A DNA stretch of 44,072 nucleotides from a virus (Duplodnaviria > Heunggongvirae > Uroviricota > Caudoviricetes), in the IMG/VR virus record IMGVR_UViG_3300045988_043987. One strand, given 5' to 3'. How positions within the stretch are numbered: position 1 is the stretch's first letter; each line of letters opens with the position of its first letter. Both the position numbers and the translations under genes were made by a program. Of this stretch, positions 1 through 44,072 are shown piece after piece. A model generated the notes under the pieces. That model saw only the letters and a program-made list of their open reading frames with translations. It did no database searches and had not been told where the DNA came from.

Positions 1-119
1 ATTTTTTTTATCTATTTTCTATAATGACTAGTTGACTATTATCTACGACCCTACTATATTTACTCCATCGACAACGAGAACGGAGTAGAGAGAAATGATG
101 ACTAAGATTAAGCATACCG
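1..119. repeat. terminal direct repeat, left copy (identical to 43954-44072)
   Basis: bases 1-119 recur exactly at the window end; true terminal repeat or circular-assembly overlap. Confidence 0.9.
32..60 (+). promoter_or_regulatory. sigma70-like promoter (TTGACT - 17 bp - TATATT) for the rightward small-gene cluster
   Basis: -35 TTGACT at 32-37, 17-bp spacer, -10 TATATT at 55-60; lies downstream of the 43934-43962 terminator in circular order. Confidence 0.6.
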
Positions 120-5398: not shown

Positions 5399-5423
5399 TT
5401 TTATGCCCCCTGTTTAAATTAAC

Positions 5424-5456
5424 CGAATAGTACCCTATTATATTGGTGTCTGCAAA
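5424..5456. promoter_or_regulatory. conserved dyad operator/promoter motif, copy 1
   Basis: CGAATAGTACCCTATTATATTGGTGTCTGCAAA; core AATAG-N4-CTATT with TATAAT on the minus strand. Confidence 0.6.
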
Positions 5457-5499
5457 TATTATTTTTATGCGTTACACTGGCGATACTACAGGAGGGCTT

Positions 5500-7006: not shown

Positions 7007-7038
7007 AAAGGCCCCTTATGGGGCCTTAATTTTATTTA
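7007..7038. terminator. bidirectional intrinsic terminator
   Basis: AAAAGGCCCC-TTAT-GGGGCCTT followed by AATTTTATTT. Confidence 0.7.
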
Positions 7039-7553
7039 AATCGCGCTGGCATTAGCACCATAAATGCAGTGTTTGAAAATGATATTTTGCATCCTCTGAT
7101 TTGGTCCTGGAAATCGAAACGAGCGATTTCATTTTTGTATGCCTTAGAAATCTTGTGCGCGTCCGCCAAGTAGCGCAGGGTGAACCCTATGCTGTCAACC
7201 GCCCCCGGCGTGATGTGCGCCACACGTCTCCAGTCAGGAAACCTTCCGTCTACAACATCTACCGGAAGTGTACATATAAGCGCACGACTATCGTCATAGA
7301 AAGAAACGCTGCTGTTGTCGTGGTCTACTTCCGCGTAGTTAAATTTAGAAGGCTCTCTCCCTTTGATGTCTATGAGAACCGCATTCTCAACGTTTGTCTT
7401 AACGTTGTCGCAGAACAATCTATGACCGTCCGTAGACACTATCAATCCCTCCGGGTCTATGTAAAAAGCATTCAAATAATAGCGCACATCATTTTTAGCT
7501 CTGCATATTTTTGCCCCTACATACGCAGGGAAAGTAATTACTGTAGTAGCCAT
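7032..7553 (-). CDS. truncated beta sliding clamp (DnaN)-like protein
   Basis: segments DVRYYLNA, STDGHRLF, VDGRFPDWRRV, SIGFTLRYLADA and C-terminal MVLMPARFK match recalled enterobacterial DnaN domain II and C-terminus; GAGGAGG ribosome-binding site; own promoter motif. Confidence 0.7.
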   Translation of the reverse strand: MATTVITFPAYVGAKICRAKNDVRYYLNAFYIDPEGLIVSTDGHRLFCDNVKTNVENAVLIDIKGREPSKFNYAEVDHDNSSVSFYDDSRALICTLPVDVVDGRFPDWRRVAHITPGAVDSIGFTLRYLADAHKISKAYKNEIARFDFQDQIRGCKISFSNTAFMVLMPARFK

Positions 7554-7578
7554 TTTAACTCCTCCTCGTTTCGATAAC

Positions 7579-7611
7579 TGAATAGTACCCTATTATGTTG
7601 GGGTGTGCAAA
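7579..7611. promoter_or_regulatory. conserved dyad operator/promoter motif, copy 2
   Basis: TGAATAGTACCCTATTATGTTGGGGTGTGCAAA; minus-strand reading precedes the clamp-like gene's ribosome-binding site. Confidence 0.6.
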
Positions 7612-7661
7612 CTATTTATTAGCCTATTCCAGTTATTCCGCTCAATTGTAAATGTTGGAAT

Positions 7662-7704
7662 AAACTATTCGAATAGTTGACTTTTCACTAAAAATATGCT
7701 AAGC
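7662..7704 (+). promoter_or_regulatory. promoter of ncRNA A with upstream perfect palindrome
   Basis: palindrome AACTATTCGAATAGTT (7662-7677) overlapping -35 TTGACT (7676-7681); 17-bp spacer; -10 TAAGCT (7699-7704). Confidence 0.55.
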
Positions 7705-7710
7705 TCCACC

Positions 7711-7910
7711 TGAGCTTGTGAAGTATGAACAAGCGACCGCGGCGCGGGCAGGTAACGGAGCGGGACGTAAGTCCTGAGTGTAGTTACGCTGACGCGTTCG
7801 GAAGGGCCATACTCTATTGCTTGTGTAAAAAGTAACTGGTTTACTGAGATTACGCCGTTTCTATGTTTAAATGATAAGGACTAGCGCCCCGCTTTATGGC
7901 GGGGCTTTAC
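7711..7910 (+). ncRNA. candidate structured small RNA, paralog A
   Basis: own promoter; 5' hairpin GCUUGU-N9-ACAAGC; internal hairpin GGAC-GUAA-GUCC; conserved 3' segment UUCGGAAGGGCCAUA; terminator-like hairpin GCCCCGC-N6-GCGGGGC plus U-rich tail; paralog at 38625. Confidence 0.5.
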
Positions 7911-7929
7911 TTATCGAGAAAGGAGAAAC

Positions 7930-8316: not shown

Positions 8317-8425
8317 CGACGCTGACGAGGATTTGGCTATCGACGTTCAGAACGCCGAATGTGTACGGCAACTGAGACTGAAAGTGTTCATGTTGCAGGA
8401 TTACGTGAGGAATATTCTGGAATAG
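8162..8425 (+). CDS. o-spanin (Rz1-like outer-membrane lipoprotein)
   Basis: signal peptide with lipobox LSAC, proline-rich mature part; GTG start with GAGGTGA; begins inside Rz and extends past its stop. Confidence 0.7.
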   Translation: MKSLSTLKRLAAACALLTLSACSSSPAPSQTQIPSPDMTMMQPPCKLAPPSSDADEDLAIDVQNAECVRQLRLKVFMLQDYVRNILE

Positions 8426-8507
8426 TTGCCTTGCATGTTGGAATAATTTATTCTTGACATGTAAATCCGGGTGGCCCGGGTTCCAACGTCCAGGGGACAT
8501 ACTGACT

Positions 8508-9209
8508 ATGAATCGTTTTTTACGTTATCCGTTCCAGGAAGAAGCTGGGGCAGAAGATAAAGCTGGTGGCGGTGACGCGCCGAAAATGTTCACCGCTGAA
8601 GAAGTTCAGGCGCTGATTGAGAAAGAAGTCGCCGGGCTTAAGGCCAATCAGGAAGCGTTGCTGGCGGAGAAGAAAGAAGCCGCTCGCAAAGCAAAAGAGG
8701 CCGAAGAAGAACGGCAGCGCGCACACCAGGAGGCGTTAAAAGCCGCTGGTAAGATGGACGAGTTCGAAAAAACGATTCGTAGCCAGTATGACCCGGTGCT
8801 AGCCGAGAAAGATGGCCGCATCTCCAGAATGGCAGAGCGCATCCTCGGCAGCGAACGTAAAGCGGTGTTAGGCTCTTTCGCAGGTGACTTCATCACCCCG
8901 GAAGCAGTGGACATCCTTGCACCGTTCGTTAAGACTGAGTTCGAAGGTGATGATGTGGTTACTAAGTTTGTCGGTGCAGATGGCAACGTAATCACGACTG
9001 ACCCGGAACAGTTCCGCAAATATCTGCGCGAACACAAAGCGTTTTCGCATTTGATTAAAGCAAATGCAGCTTCCGGCGGCGGGGCTTCCGGTGGCAAAGG
9101 CGGCGGGGCCGCACCAGCGTTTAAAGACATGAGTGAAGCGGAGCGTTTAGCTCTGTATAAATCGAACCCTGCCGAATTTGAACGGCAACTTAAAGCCCTG
9201 AGGAAATAA
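8508..9209 (+). CDS. scaffolding protein
   Basis: charged alpha-helical/coiled-coil sequence with Gly-rich C-terminal region, immediately upstream of major capsid gene. Confidence 0.6.
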   Translation: MNRFLRYPFQEEAGAEDKAGGGDAPKMFTAEEVQALIEKEVAGLKANQEALLAEKKEAARKAKEAEEERQRAHQEALKAAGKMDEFEKTIRSQYDPVLAEKDGRISRMAERILGSERKAVLGSFAGDFITPEAVDILAPFVKTEFEGDDVVTKFVGADGNVITTDPEQFRKYLREHKAFSHLIKANAASGGGASGGKGGGAAPAFKDMSEAERLALYKSNPAEFERQLKALRK

Positions 9210-17096: not shown

Positions 17097-17122
17097 TTTA
17101 AACCCCTTCATTGTTGGTGTAA

Positions 17123-17156
17123 GTGAATAGTACCCTATTATATTGGGGCGCGCAAG
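17123..17156. promoter_or_regulatory. conserved dyad operator/promoter motif, copy 3
   Basis: GTGAATAGTACCCTATTATATTGGGGCGCGCAAG. Confidence 0.6.
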
Positions 17157-17263
17157 TAGTGTGCTAGAATAAGTTTGCGCCTAGTGTCGCACACGAAAAG
17201 CGGGTGGTTCCCGTCTGGCGCATTTATCGTTAACCTGTAACCTCTTAACCAAAGGATTAAAGA

Positions 17264-33074: not shown

Positions 33075-33106
33075 TGGTTAGAAATATAATAGCTAACTAT
33101 TCAGGT
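33075..33106 (-). promoter_or_regulatory. sigma70-like promoter (TTGACA-17-TATATT) with dyad operator in spacer
   Basis: minus-strand GTGTTGACA, 17-bp spacer containing TGAATAGTTAGCTATT, -10 TATATT; upstream of SSB gene. Confidence 0.6.
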
Positions 33107-35167: not shown

Positions 35168-35200
35168 GTATGCACTAACTATAATAGCTAACTATTCATT
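35168..35200 (+). promoter_or_regulatory. dyad operator/promoter motif, copy upstream of helix-turn-helix gene (site 1)
   Basis: ATGCAC-TAAC-TATAAT-AGCTAACTATTCA. Confidence 0.55.
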
Positions 35201-35271: not shown

Positions 35272-35487
35272 ATGCAACCATCTGAACTAGGCATCCGTGT
35301 AGAACAACGCCGTAAAGAACTCGGTATCTCCCAGCGCCGTCTGGCGGTCCTGGCCGGTGTTTCCCAGGGCGCGATTAACCAGCTGGCACTTGGAGTAACT
35401 CAGGACGTCCGCCCGGCGACGCTGTTCAAGCTGGCGGAAGTGCTGGAAGTAGACGCCAAGTGGCTGGCGTTCGGTGAAGGGGCTTAA
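35272..35487 (+). CDS. XRE-family (Cro/CI-like) helix-turn-helix transcriptional regulator
   Basis: helix-turn-helix signature ISQRRLAVLAGVSQGAINQL; AAGGAG ribosome-binding site; lone plus-strand gene in minus-strand module. Confidence 0.75.
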   Translation: MQPSELGIRVEQRRKELGISQRRLAVLAGVSQGAINQLALGVTQDVRPATLFKLAEVLEVDAKWLAFGEGA

Positions 35488-35638: not shown

Positions 35639-37896
35639 TCCAAATCCTCATCTGTCACCACCAGCATTTCATTCGGTTCGTATATTGTCTTCGGAATTTT
35701 GTTGTCGTTTATACCCCACGGCAGCCGGTACTGCTTAGGTATAGGTCTGTTGTTGCCATCCAGACCTGAGACGATAACCCCAGCCTCGTGCATCTCTTCC
35801 AGTTTCTTTCTAAGGTCGTTATTGGCGTTAATTGGTACGCCATAACTATCTTCTTTCGCGGCTTTGACGATAGCCGACATAGAGAACCCTCGCTTATCGT
35901 CGCCCTGCTCCTGCAATTTACCCAATGCGTAAATAACCGTAGCCTCTTTGGTGTCCAGTTTCTCGAACTGGCCTACCTTTTCTTTAACGGCTTCCTTCTG
36001 TTCGTCGGTCATACCTTCTACTTTCTTCACGAAGACAGAGAAGGCGTTAAAGTTAACAAAGACATCGATGTGCGGGTTTCCTGCGTCAAAATCGCGGACA
36101 TCATCACTACTGTACCCTTCCGGAAGACCCATGAAGTTGTGAGTTGGCTCTTTCTTTTTCGGTGGCTCCGCTATCTGAATCTTCTGTATTACAAATCCTC
36201 TGGCTTTCTGCCGTTCTCCGTTTCGGTTCTTTATGTGATACAGGTTTATCCCTAAGTTATTGTCGTTGTCAGGCTTATGCAGGAACATCCCGTTATCGAT
36301 GGAGTTGTGAAAGTCACTTCCACCCTTCGGCATCATGCCGTTTTCCGACGGTACTGTTTCGTCGATGTTTTTAGTCGGGTGCACCATAGCACCTACCGCG
36401 GCGTTAAGCGTCGACGCTATTTCGTTAAGTGCCTGCGCCGCTTCTTTCATTGACCTGTTGTCGTTTTCGTCAAAGCCAGGTATGCAAGTTTGCAGGGTAT
36501 CAAACGTAACCTTTACAATTTTCTCTTCACCGGCAACACGGCGCATCATTCTCACCACCTGACGTCGCCATGCTTCGTCGAGTAAGTTACATCCCTCCGC
36601 AACACAATCGATAATGTGCAAGCGGTCCAAGTTATCGCCGAGGGCAATCTGCAAAGATTTTTTATGTCGCTCGAACGACCGCACACCTTCACCCGCAAAA
36701 ATAAACGCATGACCTTCCGCTACCTCAGCCCCGCCGAACGCATATCTTTTTTCGGCAGCAATAGCGGCGTCAATCGCCATACTAAATGTTGACTTACCGG
36801 TATGCGACTTTGCACAAATGTAGAATGATTCGTTAGTCTGCATAAGACCATCTACGACGGAGTATGCAGGTTCTTTTTCTAATTCCGGCTCGTCTTCAAG
36901 GTCTTCCAGCGTGCAAGTTACAGGTTCCTCGTTCTCTGTGCGGTGCAGTTCTTCAATCTCTTCATCAGGTAAATCAGGCAGAGCCGCGCGAATGCTGTTA
37001 ACGCTGATAGGTTGCTTGTCTACGTTAAGCTCGTCAGGTAGACCACACATACGCAGGGCCAAATGCTGCCTACGGTTAAGCTCGGTGCAAGCGCCGTTGT
37101 TTGTATGCTGGCAGACAAAGCGCACTTCTTTACCGTCTAGCATGATGCTGGTGGAGCCTTTGCCTGTGTGCAGATGTTCGTTAGGGCATGGCACTTCGTA
37201 CCCGCGCCCGGAAGATAAAGCATCAAGCCCAAGCTCGGCTTCGCAGAAATGCGCTATATCTGCGTTAAGCCCATGCTCATCGGCAGCAAGTGTCTTGGCT
37301 TCGCGTTTACGCAACCCCATCTCTTCGGCTTTCTTGATGTACCGCTCGGCACGGATAACACGCCCCTCTGTAACCGTTATCTTCGACTCTTTATGCGGCA
37401 GGTAGATAAGGCGGTTGCCATCTTCTGTGCAGTGGTCACGCAGCGATTCATCTATTTCTAACTCTGCACAAATAGCCCGTTGCACCATCCACGCATCGTT
37501 AGAGTTAAACGGAGTGCGAGCCGGAACCAGAACGCGGAATGCGTAATCCCCGTTTTTACACGCGTGCTGATGCGATGCCGTTGTGTGCAGAATATTGAAG
37601 AACGGCGCGTTCTTGAATTTGCGTGTCAGGTCGCGGTACTGAGTACGGTTGAGATGGTCGAAGTCGAACTTAACCACACTGTCTTCCAGAATCGCATTCT
37701 TACGGCGACCGCCAACAGGAGCAATAGCCTTCTGCTTAATCTTAGCCGCGTCGTATTCTTCCTTAGTCCACGACGGGTCCACGGACAAACGCTTCGATGT
37801 ATCGCAGACGTACTCTACAAACTGCTCCAGCGGCATTTCACGTGCTACAGGGTTTTTATCGAATGTGTTACGCAGCGTTGCAAAAACAATATTCAT
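35635..37896 (-). CDS. DNA primase / P-loop ATPase (primase-helicase-like replication protein)
   Basis: Cys/His zinc-binding cluster, Walker A SHTGKST, 753 aa. Confidence 0.75.
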   Translation of the reverse strand: MNIVFATLRNTFDKNPVAREMPLEQFVEYVCDTSKRLSVDPSWTKEEYDAAKIKQKAIAPVGGRRKNAILEDSVVKFDFDHLNRTQYRDLTRKFKNAPFFNILHTTASHQHACKNGDYAFRVLVPARTPFNSNDAWMVQRAICAELEIDESLRDHCTEDGNRLIYLPHKESKITVTEGRVIRAERYIKKAEEMGLRKREAKTLAADEHGLNADIAHFCEAELGLDALSSGRGYEVPCPNEHLHTGKGSTSIMLDGKEVRFVCQHTNNGACTELNRRQHLALRMCGLPDELNVDKQPISVNSIRAALPDLPDEEIEELHRTENEEPVTCTLEDLEDEPELEKEPAYSVVDGLMQTNESFYICAKSHTGKSTFSMAIDAAIAAEKRYAFGGAEVAEGHAFIFAGEGVRSFERHKKSLQIALGDNLDRLHIIDCVAEGCNLLDEAWRRQVVRMMRRVAGEEKIVKVTFDTLQTCIPGFDENDNRSMKEAAQALNEIASTLNAAVGAMVHPTKNIDETVPSENGMMPKGGSDFHNSIDNGMFLHKPDNDNNLGINLYHIKNRNGERQKARGFVIQKIQIAEPPKKKEPTHNFMGLPEGYSSDDVRDFDAGNPHIDVFVNFNAFSVFVKKVEGMTDEQKEAVKEKVGQFEKLDTKEATVIYALGKLQEQGDDKRGFSMSAIVKAAKEDSYGVPINANNDLRKKLEEMHEAGVIVSGLDGNNRPIPKQYRLPWGINDNKIPKTIYEPNEMLVVTDEDLE

Positions 37897-38089: not shown

Positions 38090-38302
38090 TTATTTATCGC
38101 CTGCAAACCACGCGTGCGCAGAATCATAGAAACGACATTTACTTAACATGTCTACCGGCATCTTAATAATGCGCGTCGGTTCCGACAAATGATTAGGTTT
38201 ACATATTTCTGCATAGAATCCGCTGTCGGTAATTTCTGACGCAAACTTAAACCAGTATTTAACTTTACCGTTCTCAAAGTAACAACCCATACGCCCAATC
38301 AT
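38090..38302 (-). CDS. hypothetical protein (70 aa)
   Basis: ORF coupled to upstream helix-turn-helix gene. Confidence 0.5.
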   Translation of the reverse strand: MIGRMGCYFENGKVKYWFKFASEITDSGFYAEICKPNHLSEPTRIIKMPVDMLSKCRFYDSAHAWFAGDK

Positions 38303-38481
38303 TTCACGTTCTCCTTAATCCACGCTTCAACTTTATTACGGTCAAATGTTCCAGGTAAACGGCGGCCCATAACCTTAATACAACAGTCGGGGAATTTACC
38401 ACTGCGTAACCAGTTATTAATTGTCTGACGTGTCACCCCAATACGTTCTGCTACTTCATTCTGGGTCATGTAATGTTGCAT
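38299..38481 (-). CDS. helix-turn-helix DNA-binding protein (AlpA/excisionase-like fold)
   Basis: MTQNEVAERIGVTRQTINNWLRSGKFP; AGGAG before ATG at 38481 (track ORF extends to 38553). Confidence 0.65.
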   Translation of the reverse strand: MQHYMTQNEVAERIGVTRQTINNWLRSGKFPDCCIKVMGRRLPGTFDRNKVEAWIKENVK

Positions 38482-38589
38482 TTTTATATCTCCTGTTTGT
38501 TTAGTGAAGCCAAGTATAGGATAGCGTGAATGTAAAAGCAACCAAAACACCACACAAAGTTACTAAGATACAAAAGATGCTACTGGTAT

Positions 38590-38618
38590 TGACTTTTACT
38601 AAGAAATATGCTAAGCTC
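38590..38618 (+). promoter_or_regulatory. promoter of ncRNA B (TTGACT - 17 bp - TAAGCT)
   Basis: same hexamers and spacing as ncRNA A promoter. Confidence 0.55.
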
Positions 38619-38624
38619 GTCCTG

Positions 38625-38836
38625 AGCTTGTGAAGTATGAACAAGCGACCGCGGTGCGCGGCAGGCGAAACGAGCACGTCTCGACGTGTGGAGTGAGTCT
38701 CGCTGGCGCATTCGGAAGGGCCATAGTCTATTGTTATTCCCGCCTAAGTATCTAAGTTACTGATTTGACGTAGGTTAGAACCGCAAGCTCACTCACTCAC
38801 TCTTGGTGCCTTCGGCACCCCGTTCGTTTCGTTTCG
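38625..38836 (+). ncRNA. candidate structured small RNA, paralog B
   Basis: shares 5' 37 nt and 3' UUCGGAAGGGCCAUA segment with paralog A; internal hairpin CACGU-CUCG-ACGUG; terminator-like GGUGCC-UUCG-GCACC plus U-rich tail. Confidence 0.5.
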
Positions 38837-38885
38837 CTCGCTACCCTATTACACGAAAGAATCACAACGGCAACGTAACTATTCT

Positions 38886-38919
38886 CTTGCACACCCCAAT
38901 ATAATAGGATACTATTCAC
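38886..38919 (+). promoter_or_regulatory. conserved dyad operator/promoter motif, copy 4 (TTGCAC-N7-TATAAT-AGGATACTATTCAC)
   Basis: perfect TATAAT at 38900-38905; about 30 nt upstream of ribosome-binding site of 38950 gene. Confidence 0.6.
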
Positions 38920-38949: not shown

Positions 38950-39141
38950 ATGTTTAAAAAGGGTCAGTTGGTTAAATGCGCCGACGGTAAACACGGTGTG
39001 ATTGAATTAAAATCCGCTTTATTTCCGGGAGAGTACGTAGTTACTGTGCAAAAGGTGAGAGGAGTAAATTCGGTGGTATACGTAGCGGAAGAGAATTTAA
39101 AGCTAATCGGCAACAATTTTAAATTCAAAGGGGCGAAGTGA
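38950..39141 (+). CDS. hypothetical protein (63 aa)
   Basis: GAGGAG ribosome-binding site; first gene of rightward early cluster. Confidence 0.6.
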   Translation: MFKKGQLVKCADGKHGVIELKSALFPGEYVVTVQKVRGVNSVVYVAEENLKLIGNNFKFKGAK

Positions 39142-40235: not shown

Positions 40236-40406
40236 ATGAAACTTAATGACATCGTAACCTGGACCGGTAGAAACGGAGAAAAGCGATTCGGGCTTATTGT
40301 TGCATCAAACGGCAACAAGTACCGTGTTATGCGATGGCGTCAGTGGGCGCGACGCCCGAGGCACTACTGGATTAGTAGCGAACGATTATCTTTAAAACAC
40401 CAATAA
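40236..40406 (+). CDS. hypothetical basic small protein (56 aa)
   Basis: strong AAGGAG ribosome-binding site; below track cutoff. Confidence 0.4.
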   Translation: MKLNDIVTWTGRNGEKRFGLIVASNGNKYRVMRWRQWARRPRHYWISSERLSLKHQ

Positions 40407-40412
40407 AATTTA

Positions 40413-40447
40413 CTTGCACGCTAAGATAGAATAGGCTACTATTCACT
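40413..40447 (+). promoter_or_regulatory. conserved dyad operator/promoter motif, copy 5 (TTGCAC-N7-TAGAAT-AGGCTACTATTCAC)
   Basis: same architecture and leader (CACAAACGAGAGGAG) as copy 4. Confidence 0.55.
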
Positions 40448-40473: not shown

Positions 40474-40614
40474 ATGATTCCCGCAGCAACTTGGATGGAA
40501 GGGTATAGGTCCTGGACTTTAGGCGAACTGGTTGATGCTTACGAGATACTAGGCAGCACTTCGGTGTGTAACGGCGACACGAAAGTGATAACAATGGGGT
40601 TTGATGATGAGTAA
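40474..40614 (+). CDS. hypothetical small protein (46 aa)
   Basis: GAGAGGAG ribosome-binding site; below track cutoff. Confidence 0.4.
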   Translation: MIPAATWMEGYRSWTLGELVDAYEILGSTSVCNGDTKVITMGFDDE

Positions 40615-41275
40615 CAAAAACGAAGTATTCGAGTACCTGATTGACCAGCTACGGCAGCAGCTACCTGTCGTAGATGTAATGGGTGAGATTGAACGGTGGA
40701 GTATCGACCGTAGTATTGCTGGCCGCGGTAACTATACCGACGAGGAAAACGTCATAATCGATGCTTACATCGGCCTGGAGCACAACACATACAAGCAACA
40801 GTGCGAAGACCTGGCACAAGAGGTACAGTCACTCAAGAATCAGTTACGTGATGCGTCTGCACAGATTAAGGAGTTGCAGGAAGACAACATTAGGAAATCC
40901 GAGCACATATCACATATGACCGGGCAATCGTCCGCATATCGTAATGACGCGTTGCGCTTTCAAGCGCAAGTTGATGACCTGGTAAAACGACTGGCTACCG
41001 CTACCGGTGACGTGGAGGCGTACAAACTTATCCGCAAAGGCGGCTACATTTCTGGTGGTCAGCGATACGTAGTAGGTGAACACGGACCTGAGCAATCTGG
41101 TTGCCGCAAAGAAGATACACAAGAATGCAACCATACCTGGAGATTCGTTAATGGTAAGGCTCCCGCCGTTTGTATTAATTGCGGCGTGACTAAATCCAGC
41201 GAGTGTGAACACGAATGGCAATTTTACGGAGTAGGGTTTCCGTGTATGTGCATTAAATGCGGGCTGAAGAAATGA
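40604..41275 (+). CDS. hypothetical protein with coiled-coil and C-terminal Cys-rich zinc-ribbon-like region
   Basis: four CxxC-type pairs near C-terminus. Confidence 0.55.
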   Translation: MMSNKNEVFEYLIDQLRQQLPVVDVMGEIERWSIDRSIAGRGNYTDEENVIIDAYIGLEHNTYKQQCEDLAQEVQSLKNQLRDASAQIKELQEDNIRKSEHISHMTGQSSAYRNDALRFQAQVDDLVKRLATATGDVEAYKLIRKGGYISGGQRYVVGEHGPEQSGCRKEDTQECNHTWRFVNGKAPAVCINCGVTKSSECEHEWQFYGVGFPCMCIKCGLKK

Positions 41276-43933: not shown

Positions 43934-43962
43934 CCGGCCCTGACCTAGCCGGGATTTTTTTT
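43934..43962 (+). terminator. intrinsic terminator
   Basis: CCCGGC-N9-GCCGGG followed by T8. Confidence 0.7.
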
Positions 43963-44072
43963 ATCTATTTTCTATAATGACTAGTTGACTATTATCTACG
44001 ACCCTACTATATTTACTCCATCGACAACGAGAACGGAGTAGAGAGAAATGATGACTAAGATTAAGCATACCG
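43954..44072. repeat. terminal direct repeat, right copy (identical to 1-119)
   Basis: exact 119-bp repetition of the window start. Confidence 0.9.

Follow-up and report, generated by a model that had tools for sequence, protein, structure and literature searches.

The window, i.e., the whole stretch of 44,072 nt that was analysed, is a complete Kagunavirus genome (Guernseyvirinae, siphoviruses of E. coli), and the 901 nt around the element considered here, copy B, match 229 phage records, the best of which are Escherichia phages at 92-95% identity. As an earlier note on this DNA had stated, copy B sits in a divergent early control region: Leftward genes for an HTH protein, two small ORFs and a helicase-primase lie on one side, and an array of small rightward early genes lies on the other (Table 1). 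Pfam and PHROGs scans of 15 ORFs (13 from the early region, the Cro-like HTH gene and a clamp-like gene beside copy A) revealed no Q-like, N-like or other RNA-binding protein. The product of the first gene to the right of B (38950-39141) is listed in PHROGs as of unknown function, like most of the early-region proteins scanned, and a KOW-like guess for it is unsupported by Pfam.

Table 1. Features of copies A and B and of their surroundings, in window coordinates
Feature	Position	Strand	Remarks
P_A, promoter of copy A	7665..7705	+	palindrome CTATTCGAATAG (7665-7676) abuts -35 TTGACT (7677-7682)
P_A extended -10, TGcTAAGCT	7697-7705	+	
Copy A core domain	7712..7822	+	P1 7714-7734; long hairpin 7737-7801; tail 7802-7819
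Copy A 3' module	7823..7929	+	hairpin GCCCCGC-TTTATG-GCGGGGC, 7886-7905
i-spanin gene, ATG	7930	+	ribosome-binding site just after copy A hairpin
Cro-like HTH gene	35272-35487		
Helicase-primase gene (753 aa)	ends 37896	leftward	beside B, with two small leftward ORFs
HTH_17 protein gene (60 aa)	38299-38481	leftward	left of B
P_B, promoter of copy B	38589..38617	+	-35 TTGACT 38589-38594; 17-nt spacer; TAAGCT 38612-38617
P_B extended -10, TGcTAAGCT	38609-38617	+	TG 38609-38610
P1 hairpin of B, GCUUGU / 9-nt loop / ACAAGC	38626..38646	+	2 nt past predicted start
Long irregular hairpin of B, 67 nt	38649..38715	+	RNAalifold, pair counts, folds of 11 types
Apical hairpin of B, CACGU-CUCG-ACGUG	38675-38688	+	
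Conserved tail of B, AAGGGCCAUAGUCUAUUG	38716..38733	+	predicted single-stranded
B-type-specific 3' module	38734..38804	+	contains AAGUUACUG
(CACT)3 tract	38790-38801	+	
3' hairpin of B, GGUGCC-UUC-GGCACC	38805-38819	+	element 38805..38836; followed by CCGUUCGUUUCGUUUCG
Second rightward promoter, phage-type, TTGCAC-N7-TATAAT	38879..38917	+	upstream of ATG 38950; repeat families D4, D6
Rightward array of small early genes	first ATG 38950	+	right of B

The two copies and their parts

Transcription of B is predicted to start at G38624, and that of A at G7712, downstream of a promoter with a near-consensus -35 and an extended -10. The hexamers and 17-nt spacing are those of copy A, as the earlier note had it (38589-38617 vs 7677-7705). 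It had also given the first 37 nt of the two transcripts as identical: The identity is real, but the identical block, CCTGAGCTTGTGAAGTATGAACAAGCGACCGCGG, is 34 nt long (7709-7742 = 38621-38654) and about 31 nt of it would be transcribed, so that 37 is slightly high. The shared 3' segment is as described, consisting of TTCGGAAGGGCCATA (7797-7811 = 38711-38725) and TCTATTG (7813-7819 = 38727-38733). With 0.00 chance occurrences of the shared 23-mer expected, the A/B repeat lies far beyond chance; and a search of the window with covariance model R1 returned nothing beyond A and B. A candidate minus-strand promoter inside both copies, TTCACA-18-CATATT, was rejected, its presence in each being due to their homology and the Jersey type lacking it.

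At the base of the long hairpin of B, CCG(C)GG-UGCGC is paired with GCGCA-UU-CGG, and above this base lie a middle helix, a conserved internal loop (GAGC / GAGUGAG) and the apical hairpin. The central regions of the two copies differ in sequence and still pair, as first noticed from the letters alone, with GGGAC-GUAA-GUCCU in A at the place of the apical hairpin of B. The middle helix CGAG/CUCG then drawn for B is a possible register; but the register homologous to that of the other types is GAAAC/GUCUC, which contains one mismatch.

Beyond the tail, the (CACT)3 tract reported for B is present, and it has six units in phage Golestan (L057). The terminal hairpin proposed for B also exists (at the DNA level we write it GGTGCC-TTC-GGCACC), but the U-rich tail said to follow it, CCGTTCGTTTCGTTTCG, is broken by C and G directly 3' of the stem and thus makes a poor U-tract. 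The element at 38805..38836 is probably a weak terminator or a 3' stabiliser. Further downstream, AATAG-N4-CTATT spans the -10/+1 region of the second rightward promoter; a PHIRE motif, tgAATAGTa-ccTATTat-T, has been reported (PMC9825357).

A conserved non-coding RNA structure

Homologs gathered from GenBank phages and IMG/VR, in about 450 related genomes, comprise 42 distinct core sequences of 11 types. A and A' occupy the A site, whereas the B site has B, B2, C, D and E; C2 has been met at both (A in L015, B in L062), and the remaining three types are Jersey-type variants. When folded singly, all 11 types have the same architecture as their minimum-energy fold, i.e., a 5'-terminal hairpin, P1, followed by a 67-nt irregular hairpin closed by ACCG(C)GG / UUCGG. 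The base of this long hairpin pairs ACCG(C)GG-NGC(G) with (C)GCN'-UU-CGG across the family, and above it stand the middle helix, a purine-rich internal loop and an apical hairpin of 5-6 bp, giving about 22-23 bp in all, spread over two or three helices with internal loops between them. The family tail, AAGGGCC..UCUAUUG, comes after the long hairpin.

The earlier note saw compensatory covariation in an RNA family, and this held in the larger alignment of 42 distinct sequences. RNAalifold recovered the base helix from a plain MAFFT alignment, and in this alignment, which was not fitted to any structure, 89.7% of cells were paired under the full structure, compared with 27-40% when partners were slid; its covariation score of 0.137 (0.076 in shuffles) was reached by 0 of 500 shuffles. 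In the model-fitted alignment (77 hits), 92.7% of cells were paired against 25-42% in slid controls, ten pairs were altered on both sides, and the score of 0.179 (0.081 in shuffles) was again reached by 0 of 500. Individual pairs illustrate the exchange: Pair 32-93 of the MAFFT alignment A1 is CG in 13 sequences, UA in 12 and AU in 4, and pair 32-96 of the model-fitted alignment is CG in 18, UA in 17 and AU in 4. The top pair of P1 occurs as U-A or U-G; within the B lineage, a U-A base pair has become C-G in B2, and UUCGG has become UUUGG with retention of a G-U pair. The folding energy of B is by itself unexceptional (z = -0.94 for the core and -1.6 for the full length); the structural case rests on covariation and comparative evidence.

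Two G-U pairs are invariant and the plus strand folds 10-13 kcal/mol better than the minus strand, which together place the RNA on the plus strand. That the region instead holds a small protein gene, or a site acting only as DNA, is scarcely credible. Short annotated CDSs do overlap the element in Sciku, Snoke, Jersey and SETP7, and B contains ORFs of 35-58 aa on both strands; but these disagree in frame, strand and length from record to record, and a ribosome-binding site is lacking. Close variants differ by indels of -1/+1 (the core measures 110-113 nt in the K type and 99-100 nt in the Jersey type), and substitutions occur as compensating pairs. The frame-breaking indels and the inconsistent annotation rule out the small-ORF reading. 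The comparisons thus support copy B as a non-coding element with a conserved RNA secondary structure.

RNase III has little positive sequence specificity, and the early leaders of T7 contain RNase III sites that are irregular hairpins of just over 20 bp with internal loops, repeated within the genome. The present element resembles these signals, with an irregular hairpin of comparable length near the promoter in each of two paralogous copies; and P1 begins at +2/+3, as 5' stabilisers do. The module could accordingly be a processing or stability signal, in which an RNase III-type site of about 23 bp and the 5' hairpin would determine where the downstream mRNA begins and how long it lasts. Unlike in the T7 signals, however, the unpaired nucleotides here are strictly conserved: ACCGCGG, UUCGGAAGG, GAGC/AGUGUA and UAUUG are kept in loops and flanks over three genera, which an enzyme with so little sequence specificity would not be expected to demand, and we regard a processing or stability signal as decidedly improbable.

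Helices that covary around invariant loop and junction nucleotides, under an apical loop that varies freely (GUAA, GUUAA, CUCG, UGUAG, GUCA, UUUA or CUCA), would also suit a binding site for a phage or host factor, with the internal loop and helix base as the pocket; candidates are a nut-like antiterminator site, a riboswitch for a small ligand and an operator that controls translation. Against this stand the ORF scans, in which no candidate N-like, Q-like or other RNA-binding protein emerged from the early genes, and the absence of any Rfam match. By-eye comparison showed that the tail is no boxA, the likeness going no further and being lost in Jersey-type and B copies. For a riboswitch, the 3' hairpin lies 70-90 nt past the domain, and by-eye inspection found no pairing between domain and 3' hairpins common to A and B, and hence no shared alternative pairing of the kind found in expression platforms. 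We therefore consider a factor-binding site improbable. A likeness of the CCCCGC/GCGGGG hairpin to CRISPR repeats was dismissed by eye on the same two grounds.

A family of the Guernseyvirinae and the origin of copy B

The K-type element occupies the A site in 181 records (65 of them from Salmonella phages) at 95-100% identity, and a Jersey-type version occurs in 269. The latter has the promoter TTGACT or TAGACT-17-TGyTACGCT, a P1 that differs at the equivalent place (ACGCU-UUCA-GCGU), ACCGCGG, the helix UGCG..CGCG / CGCG..CGCA, the apical hairpin GGGCGU-CUCA-ACGCCC and the motifs AUUCGGAAGGG..UAUUGCUU; even here, the UAUUG core of the tail is retained. Cornellviruses (VSiP, St162) carry at the equivalent place a strongly structured unit of 278 nt (z = -4.6), which retains CGUAAGGCCUUGAGU and AUAGUCUAUU and a CCG/CGG closing helix; R1 does not detect this unit, which on these motifs is apparently a divergent form of the element. 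The neighbouring scaffold protein is encoded in 496 records, and roughly 450 of these have one form of the element or another. The element is under purifying selection and better conserved than its surroundings: Mean pairwise identity is 0.95-0.98 within it and about 0.86 in adjoining coding sequence, and across homologs the TG and the hexamers of the promoter are kept while the base after TG varies (C/A/G/T).

Copy B fits the definition of this family (P1, the closed hairpin, the ..UAUUG tail and the extended -10 promoter), scoring 94.4 bits with the full model R1 (E ~1e-19) where copy A scores 134.7 bits, which confirms the claim that the two are paralogous. From these comparisons, it is well supported that B is a second, functional copy of a structured RNA module, a sigma-70 extended -10 promoter plus RNA, found throughout the Guernseyvirinae.

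Outside these phages the element was not encountered. Rfam 15 gave no match for the window, the Jersey genome, the K1H B site, the VSiP A site or L029, the best sub-threshold matches reaching 15-16 bits against family thresholds of 35-70 bits. BLAST of copy A against 5,426 E. coli genomes returned no match; and a motif scan of 100,044 bacterial genomes gave 33 matches, of which just two pass the model, both on tiny contigs (6.2 kb and 738 bp) resembling phage contamination. Motif matches in IMG/VR, L070 and L162 were chance occurrences within coding sequence, which either the model or inspection by eye excluded. In the literature searched on Guernseyvirinae RNA and transcription we found no mention of this RNA, just in-silico lists of promoters and terminators. 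The module is a new RNA family of a known general kind, i.e., a phage leader or small RNA.

The B site is never empty. In all subfamily members examined, the rightward early operon is headed by a non-coding unit that measures 250-300 nt, starts from a promoter of host type, closes with a hairpin and precedes a phage-type early promoter. A second copy of the module is found there in about 40 of the 181 K-type records (224 places in 181 records, the second always at the B site), and all 269 Jersey-type records have one match only, at the A site. Since some three quarters of K-type records and every Jersey-type record do without it, copy B itself is dispensable. At the K1H and Jersey B sites the 5' modules are unrelated and unmatched by R1. 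Type C copies share 208 nt with the K1H unit at 96% identity, beginning right after the domain, from which it follows that B-site copies arose when promoter plus domain replaced the resident 5' part. Copy A is the ancestral copy; and the origin of B, in which promoter and domain (about 145 bp) would have displaced the 5' part of an older non-coding unit, is well supported by the shared sequence. L015 carries at its A site the central module that L062 carries at its B site, indicating that the two sites exchange sequence, and B-site copies are far more varied than A-site copies, with pairing nonetheless retained.

This history bears on whether the B-site unit could mark a replication origin, its RNA priming or activating replication. 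The cumulative GC-skew minimum lies at about 38 kb, some 700 bp separate the unit from the helicase-primase gene, and the B site always has a promoter plus short repeated motifs. The skew minimum is not independent evidence, since the switch in skew coincides with the switch in gene orientation. Moreover, the ancestral and universal copy stands at the A site amid late genes, where no origin is expected, and the 5' module of the B site is interchangeable; an origin transcript is consequently very improbable.

Leader or small RNA

The position of copy A narrows the choice further. Its hairpin is followed after only about 25 nt, occupied by the ribosome-binding site, by the spanin ATG; and in Jersey and Sciku the upstream head-gene operon closes with a good terminator, after which come P_A, about 200 nt and the hairpin. 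Given the upstream terminator and so short and filled a gap, the spanin mRNA must start with the copy A RNA. On this layout there would be no space for another promoter, so that copy A would unavoidably form the 5' leader of the late spanin (Rz/Rz1) genes, and it apparently cannot be solely an sRNA gene. Scaffold and capsid genes lie downstream of the spanin genes, and a promoter-like sequence, GAATAG-TTGCCT-17-TATTCT, precedes the scaffold gene; with this site, and with the second promoter after B, read-through is strictly required for the spanins only.

The 3' hairpins are kept as stems but are seldom good terminators. Their stems are followed by CCGUUCGUUUCG in B, UUAGCGUAU in the Jersey type, GCUGCGUUGCG in types C/D/E and UGUUACGAG in the Cornellvirus form, whereas UUUACUUAU occurs in the K-type copy A only; elsewhere U-tracts are poor or absent, the hairpins of types C/D/E, the Jersey type and Cornellviruses having none at all. 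The copy A hairpin shows compensatory changes (CCCAGC/GCTGGG in L001, CCCTGC/GCAGGG in L030), and hairpins of L171 and L173 show such changes too; the hairpins are thus under selection for pairing.

The earlier note called B a small RNA gene. Its conserved non-coding structure stands; that it is a discrete gene ending at 38836 is unestablished, in that its U-tract is poor and copy A is a spanin leader. The main rival to a cis-acting leader is nevertheless a stand-alone, trans-acting sRNA, in which abundant RNAs of about 200 nt from P_A and P_B would act on RNAs or proteins of host or phage through the tail, the P1 loop or the 3' half. We hold this to be a doubtful but serious possibility. Each copy has a strong promoter of its own and a 3' hairpin, with compensatory changes in its stem; the downstream genes have a separate promoter after B; and copy A is nearly invariant across its full length, the unpaired 3' half included. 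There are precedents as well: StxS is the sRNA product of the PR'-tR' leader plus terminator in Stx phages (PMC7547250), and host genes are the targets of an sRNA encoded by lambda (bioRxiv 10.1101/2024.10.31.621285).

Several observations weigh against action in trans. No Rho-independent terminator with a long, Hfq-type U-tail was found at these hairpins, U-tracts being deficient in B, C/D/E, the Jersey type and Cornellviruses alike. As to the suggestion that the shared 3' segment pairs with phage mRNAs, its 23-nt complement matches just the two copies themselves; a 12-mer complement search of the phage genome gave seven matches, including the two copies, where about 2.6 were expected, and neither search revealed a convincing target site in the phage. 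E. coli genomes hold no similarity, although short seeds would be beyond the reach of such a search. Finally, its physical position makes copy A the spanin leader.

Our leading reading, held tentatively and at less than an even chance, is that the module may be a portable cis-acting leader that acts on its own transcription complex or nascent transcript. About half of the weight we give to this reading goes to antitermination resembling that of the put RNA of phage HK022. The module would fold on emerging from RNA polymerase and allow the polymerase past the next hairpin and the later terminators of the long rightward array; RNAs of about 200 nt that stop at the hairpin would be by-products, which could additionally act in trans. 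Because promoter and RNA move as one cassette, phages can place the module before a second operon, as at B. In its fullest form, this would make the module a new class of protein-independent RNA, riding the host RNA polymerase and pushing transcription through the hairpins and terminators of the rightward array, put-like in function and unrelated to put, an outcome that we think rather unlikely. Several points count against the cis model: The second promoter after B could drive the early genes in the absence of B, B is itself dispensable, P_A appears strong and constitutive, such that antitermination would give early spanins unless the P_A palindrome exerts control, and the near-invariant 3' half of copy A is left unexplained.

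Few phages are isolated as often as Kagunaviruses and Jerseyviruses when therapy or biocontrol of E. coli and Salmonella is the aim, and to our knowledge their transcription programme has not been studied. Genome records leave this region blank or fill it with spurious small proteins, an annotation that is corrected by a covariation-supported family, with strand and structure fixed, covering about 450 of some 500 related records; and a promoter plus RNA domain is seen to be exchanged as a cassette, both from operon to operon and from phage to phage. Very few RNA antiterminators are known, and the module, if it modifies RNA polymerase, would be a rare new one, as well as a compact, portable part for synthetic biology. 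If it acts in trans, it would be an abundant RNA of a virulent phage, probably made immediately on infection and acting on a host target.

Among known systems, phage trans-acting sRNAs (lambda LPR1/PreS and StxS) are similarly phage-borne and non-coding, with a host-type promoter and a 3' hairpin; by comparison the present module is larger and more structured, lacks an Hfq-type U-tail and keeps a fixed position relative to downstream genes. Copy A recalls the lambdoid PR'-leader-tR' unit, with its strong promoter of host type, its leader of about 200 nt and its hairpin all standing ahead of lysis genes, and with head genes downstream. This arrangement of constitutive promoter, short leader and terminator directly ahead of lysis and late genes is found at A, whereas B heads early genes. 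The lambdoid unit further has a -10-like pause element in the initially transcribed region. Hexamers resembling a -10 occur near the start here, the K type having TGAGCT (-1..+5) and AAGTAT (+10..+15) and the Jersey type a repeated TACGCT, but they also form the P1 stem. Unlike the lambdoid unit, there is no Q gene among the 15 ORFs scanned, the conserved feature is an RNA structure rather than a DNA element bound by Q, and the hairpins are mostly poor terminators.

The HK022 put RNA binds the beta' zinc-binding domain of RNA polymerase, suppressing pausing and termination. It consists of two stem-loops just after the early promoters, present as two similar copies per genome, and it needs no dedicated protein (PMC9378689). 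R1, applied unfiltered to the whole HK022 genome, found nothing at the put sites and gave an 18-bit partial match at the PR' promoter, covering just a P1-like inverted repeat within promoter DNA, and two matches below 8 bits; the likeness to put is thus one of analogy only. The domain here measures about 92 nt plus a conserved tail as opposed to about 70 nt for put, and it belongs to a virulent siphovirus, in which the second copy is optional, rather than to a lambdoid phage. What the two systems have in common is that no dedicated protein factor is evident among the ORFs scanned, that two bulged stem-loops stand right after a sigma-70 promoter (P1 and the long hairpin starting here at +2/+3), and that two similar copies head two operons, their paired regions differing by compensating changes.

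Phage-type promoters and the possible control of copy A

A promoter-like, phage-specific motif, TTGCAC-N7-TATAAT, occurs in seven copies in the window (Table), and an inverted repeat, AATAG-N4-CTATT, overlies its -10/+1 region. TTGCAC was ruled out as a -35 element, its spacing to the -10 being too short; for this reason, the motif looks, from its layout, like a -10 element joined to an operator or activator site. The motif agrees with the PHIRE motif published for fBC-Eco01 (PMC9825357).

The half-sites of this motif recur at P_A, the promoter of the structured leader RNA that lies ahead of the spanin genes (copy A): a perfect palindrome, CTATTCGAATAG, adjoins the -35 of P_A at 7665-7676, has its centre near -41.5, and is built of AATAG/CTATT halves. 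Because the two kinds of site are made from the same half-sites, their similarity suggests that one DNA-binding protein regulates both P_A and the phage-type promoters. A single half of the palindrome (TTATTC) is present in the Jersey type, one of the two main sequence forms of the leader RNA, and there is no such palindrome at P_B, the promoter of the second copy of the RNA (copy B).

Directly upstream of copy A, and with a phage-type promoter of its own, lies the gene for a 173-aa clamp-like protein. Because phage Sciku has a gene of equal length, annotated as a sliding clamp, that is placed after the portal gene instead, the clamp-like gene may be a mobile 'moron' (i.e., an accessory gene cassette). 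Among phages with the other main form of the leader RNA (K type), the interval between the o-spanin and scaffold genes (8405-8510) is 98-99% conserved; it contains a promoter-like GAATAG-TTGCCT-17-TATTCT, and a hairpin, CCGGG-TGG-CCCGG, stands ahead of the scaffold ATG (8508).

Table. Motif copies, clamp-like gene and alternative B-site units
Feature	Record	Position	Strand	Remark
TTGCAC-N7-TATAAT motif	window	5420-5458	-	
TTGCAC-N7-TATAAT motif	window	7575-7613	-	
TTGCAC-N7-TATAAT motif	window	17120-17158	-	
TTGCAC-N7-TATAAT motif	window	33082-33103	+	
TTGCAC-N7-TATAAT motif	window	35177-35198	+	
TTGCAC-N7-TATAAT motif	window	38897-38918	+	
TTGCAC-N7-TATAAT motif	window	40424-40445	+	
173-aa protein, sliding-clamp-like	window	7032-7553	-	DNA_pol3_beta_2, E = 0.005 (weak similarity)
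B-site non-coding unit, phage K1H	L174	2379-2700		
B-site non-coding unit, phage Jersey	L068	38860-39140		

The early region and the genome ends

At the B site, the divergent early control region, a (CACT)n tract (38790-38801) shortly 5' of the copy B hairpin differs in length among phages, with three units in the window versus six in Golestan (L057), a variation that looks like replication slippage. In phages without copy B, the B site is occupied by a different non-coding unit, about 280-300 nt long. The units of K1H and Jersey, which belong to no Rfam family, each combine GC-rich hairpins that have no U-tract with a promoter resembling the consensus (TTGACA-17-TAAAAT in K1H), and they have short motifs, e.g., AAGUAACUG and UAAGUAUCUAAGU, in common with the 3' halves of copies A and B. 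These units may be further undescribed RNAs.

Two early proteins of unknown function are candidate nucleic-acid binders, judging by their sequences: one of 223 aa (40604-41275), with a coiled-coil-like middle region and two zinc-finger-like Cys clusters at its C-terminus, and one of 56 aa (40236-40406), with an Arg-rich tail (RWRQWARRPRHYW). The two ends of the window (1-119 and 43954-44072) are identical over 119 nt, which indicates that the genome is closed into a circle or terminally redundant; at 32-60 and 43985-44013, one and the same promoter-like site appears.

A possible alternative fold and a probable distant relative

In copy A, the loop of the 5'-terminal hairpin P1 (AGUAUG) has its complement, CAUACU, in the tail, the conserved segment 3' of the long hairpin. 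As a result, the minimum-energy fold of this copy (7712-7822) has a 5'-3' helix that closes the whole domain, and P1 is not formed; in copy B, the tail has a G at the corresponding position, and P1 forms. The modelled closing helix may represent an alternative conformation.

The only notable match in HK022 (L210) to R1, the covariance model of the leader-RNA family, scores 18 bits (36892-36959) and falls at the late promoter PR', which shares TTGACTTTT and a P1-like inverted repeat with a ..UUUGA loop. We read the match as coincidence, because the repeat lies in promoter DNA that is not transcribed.

The Cornellvirus leader at the A site, upstream of the spanin genes (Salmonella virus VSiP, L209 240-545; also St162, L208), is 278 nt long and has a very stable fold (z = -4.6), likewise with a 5'-3' closing helix, and its promoter, TTGACA-N8-TATAAT, is of phage-type geometry. 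This leader is probably distantly related to the family and lies beyond the reach of R1.
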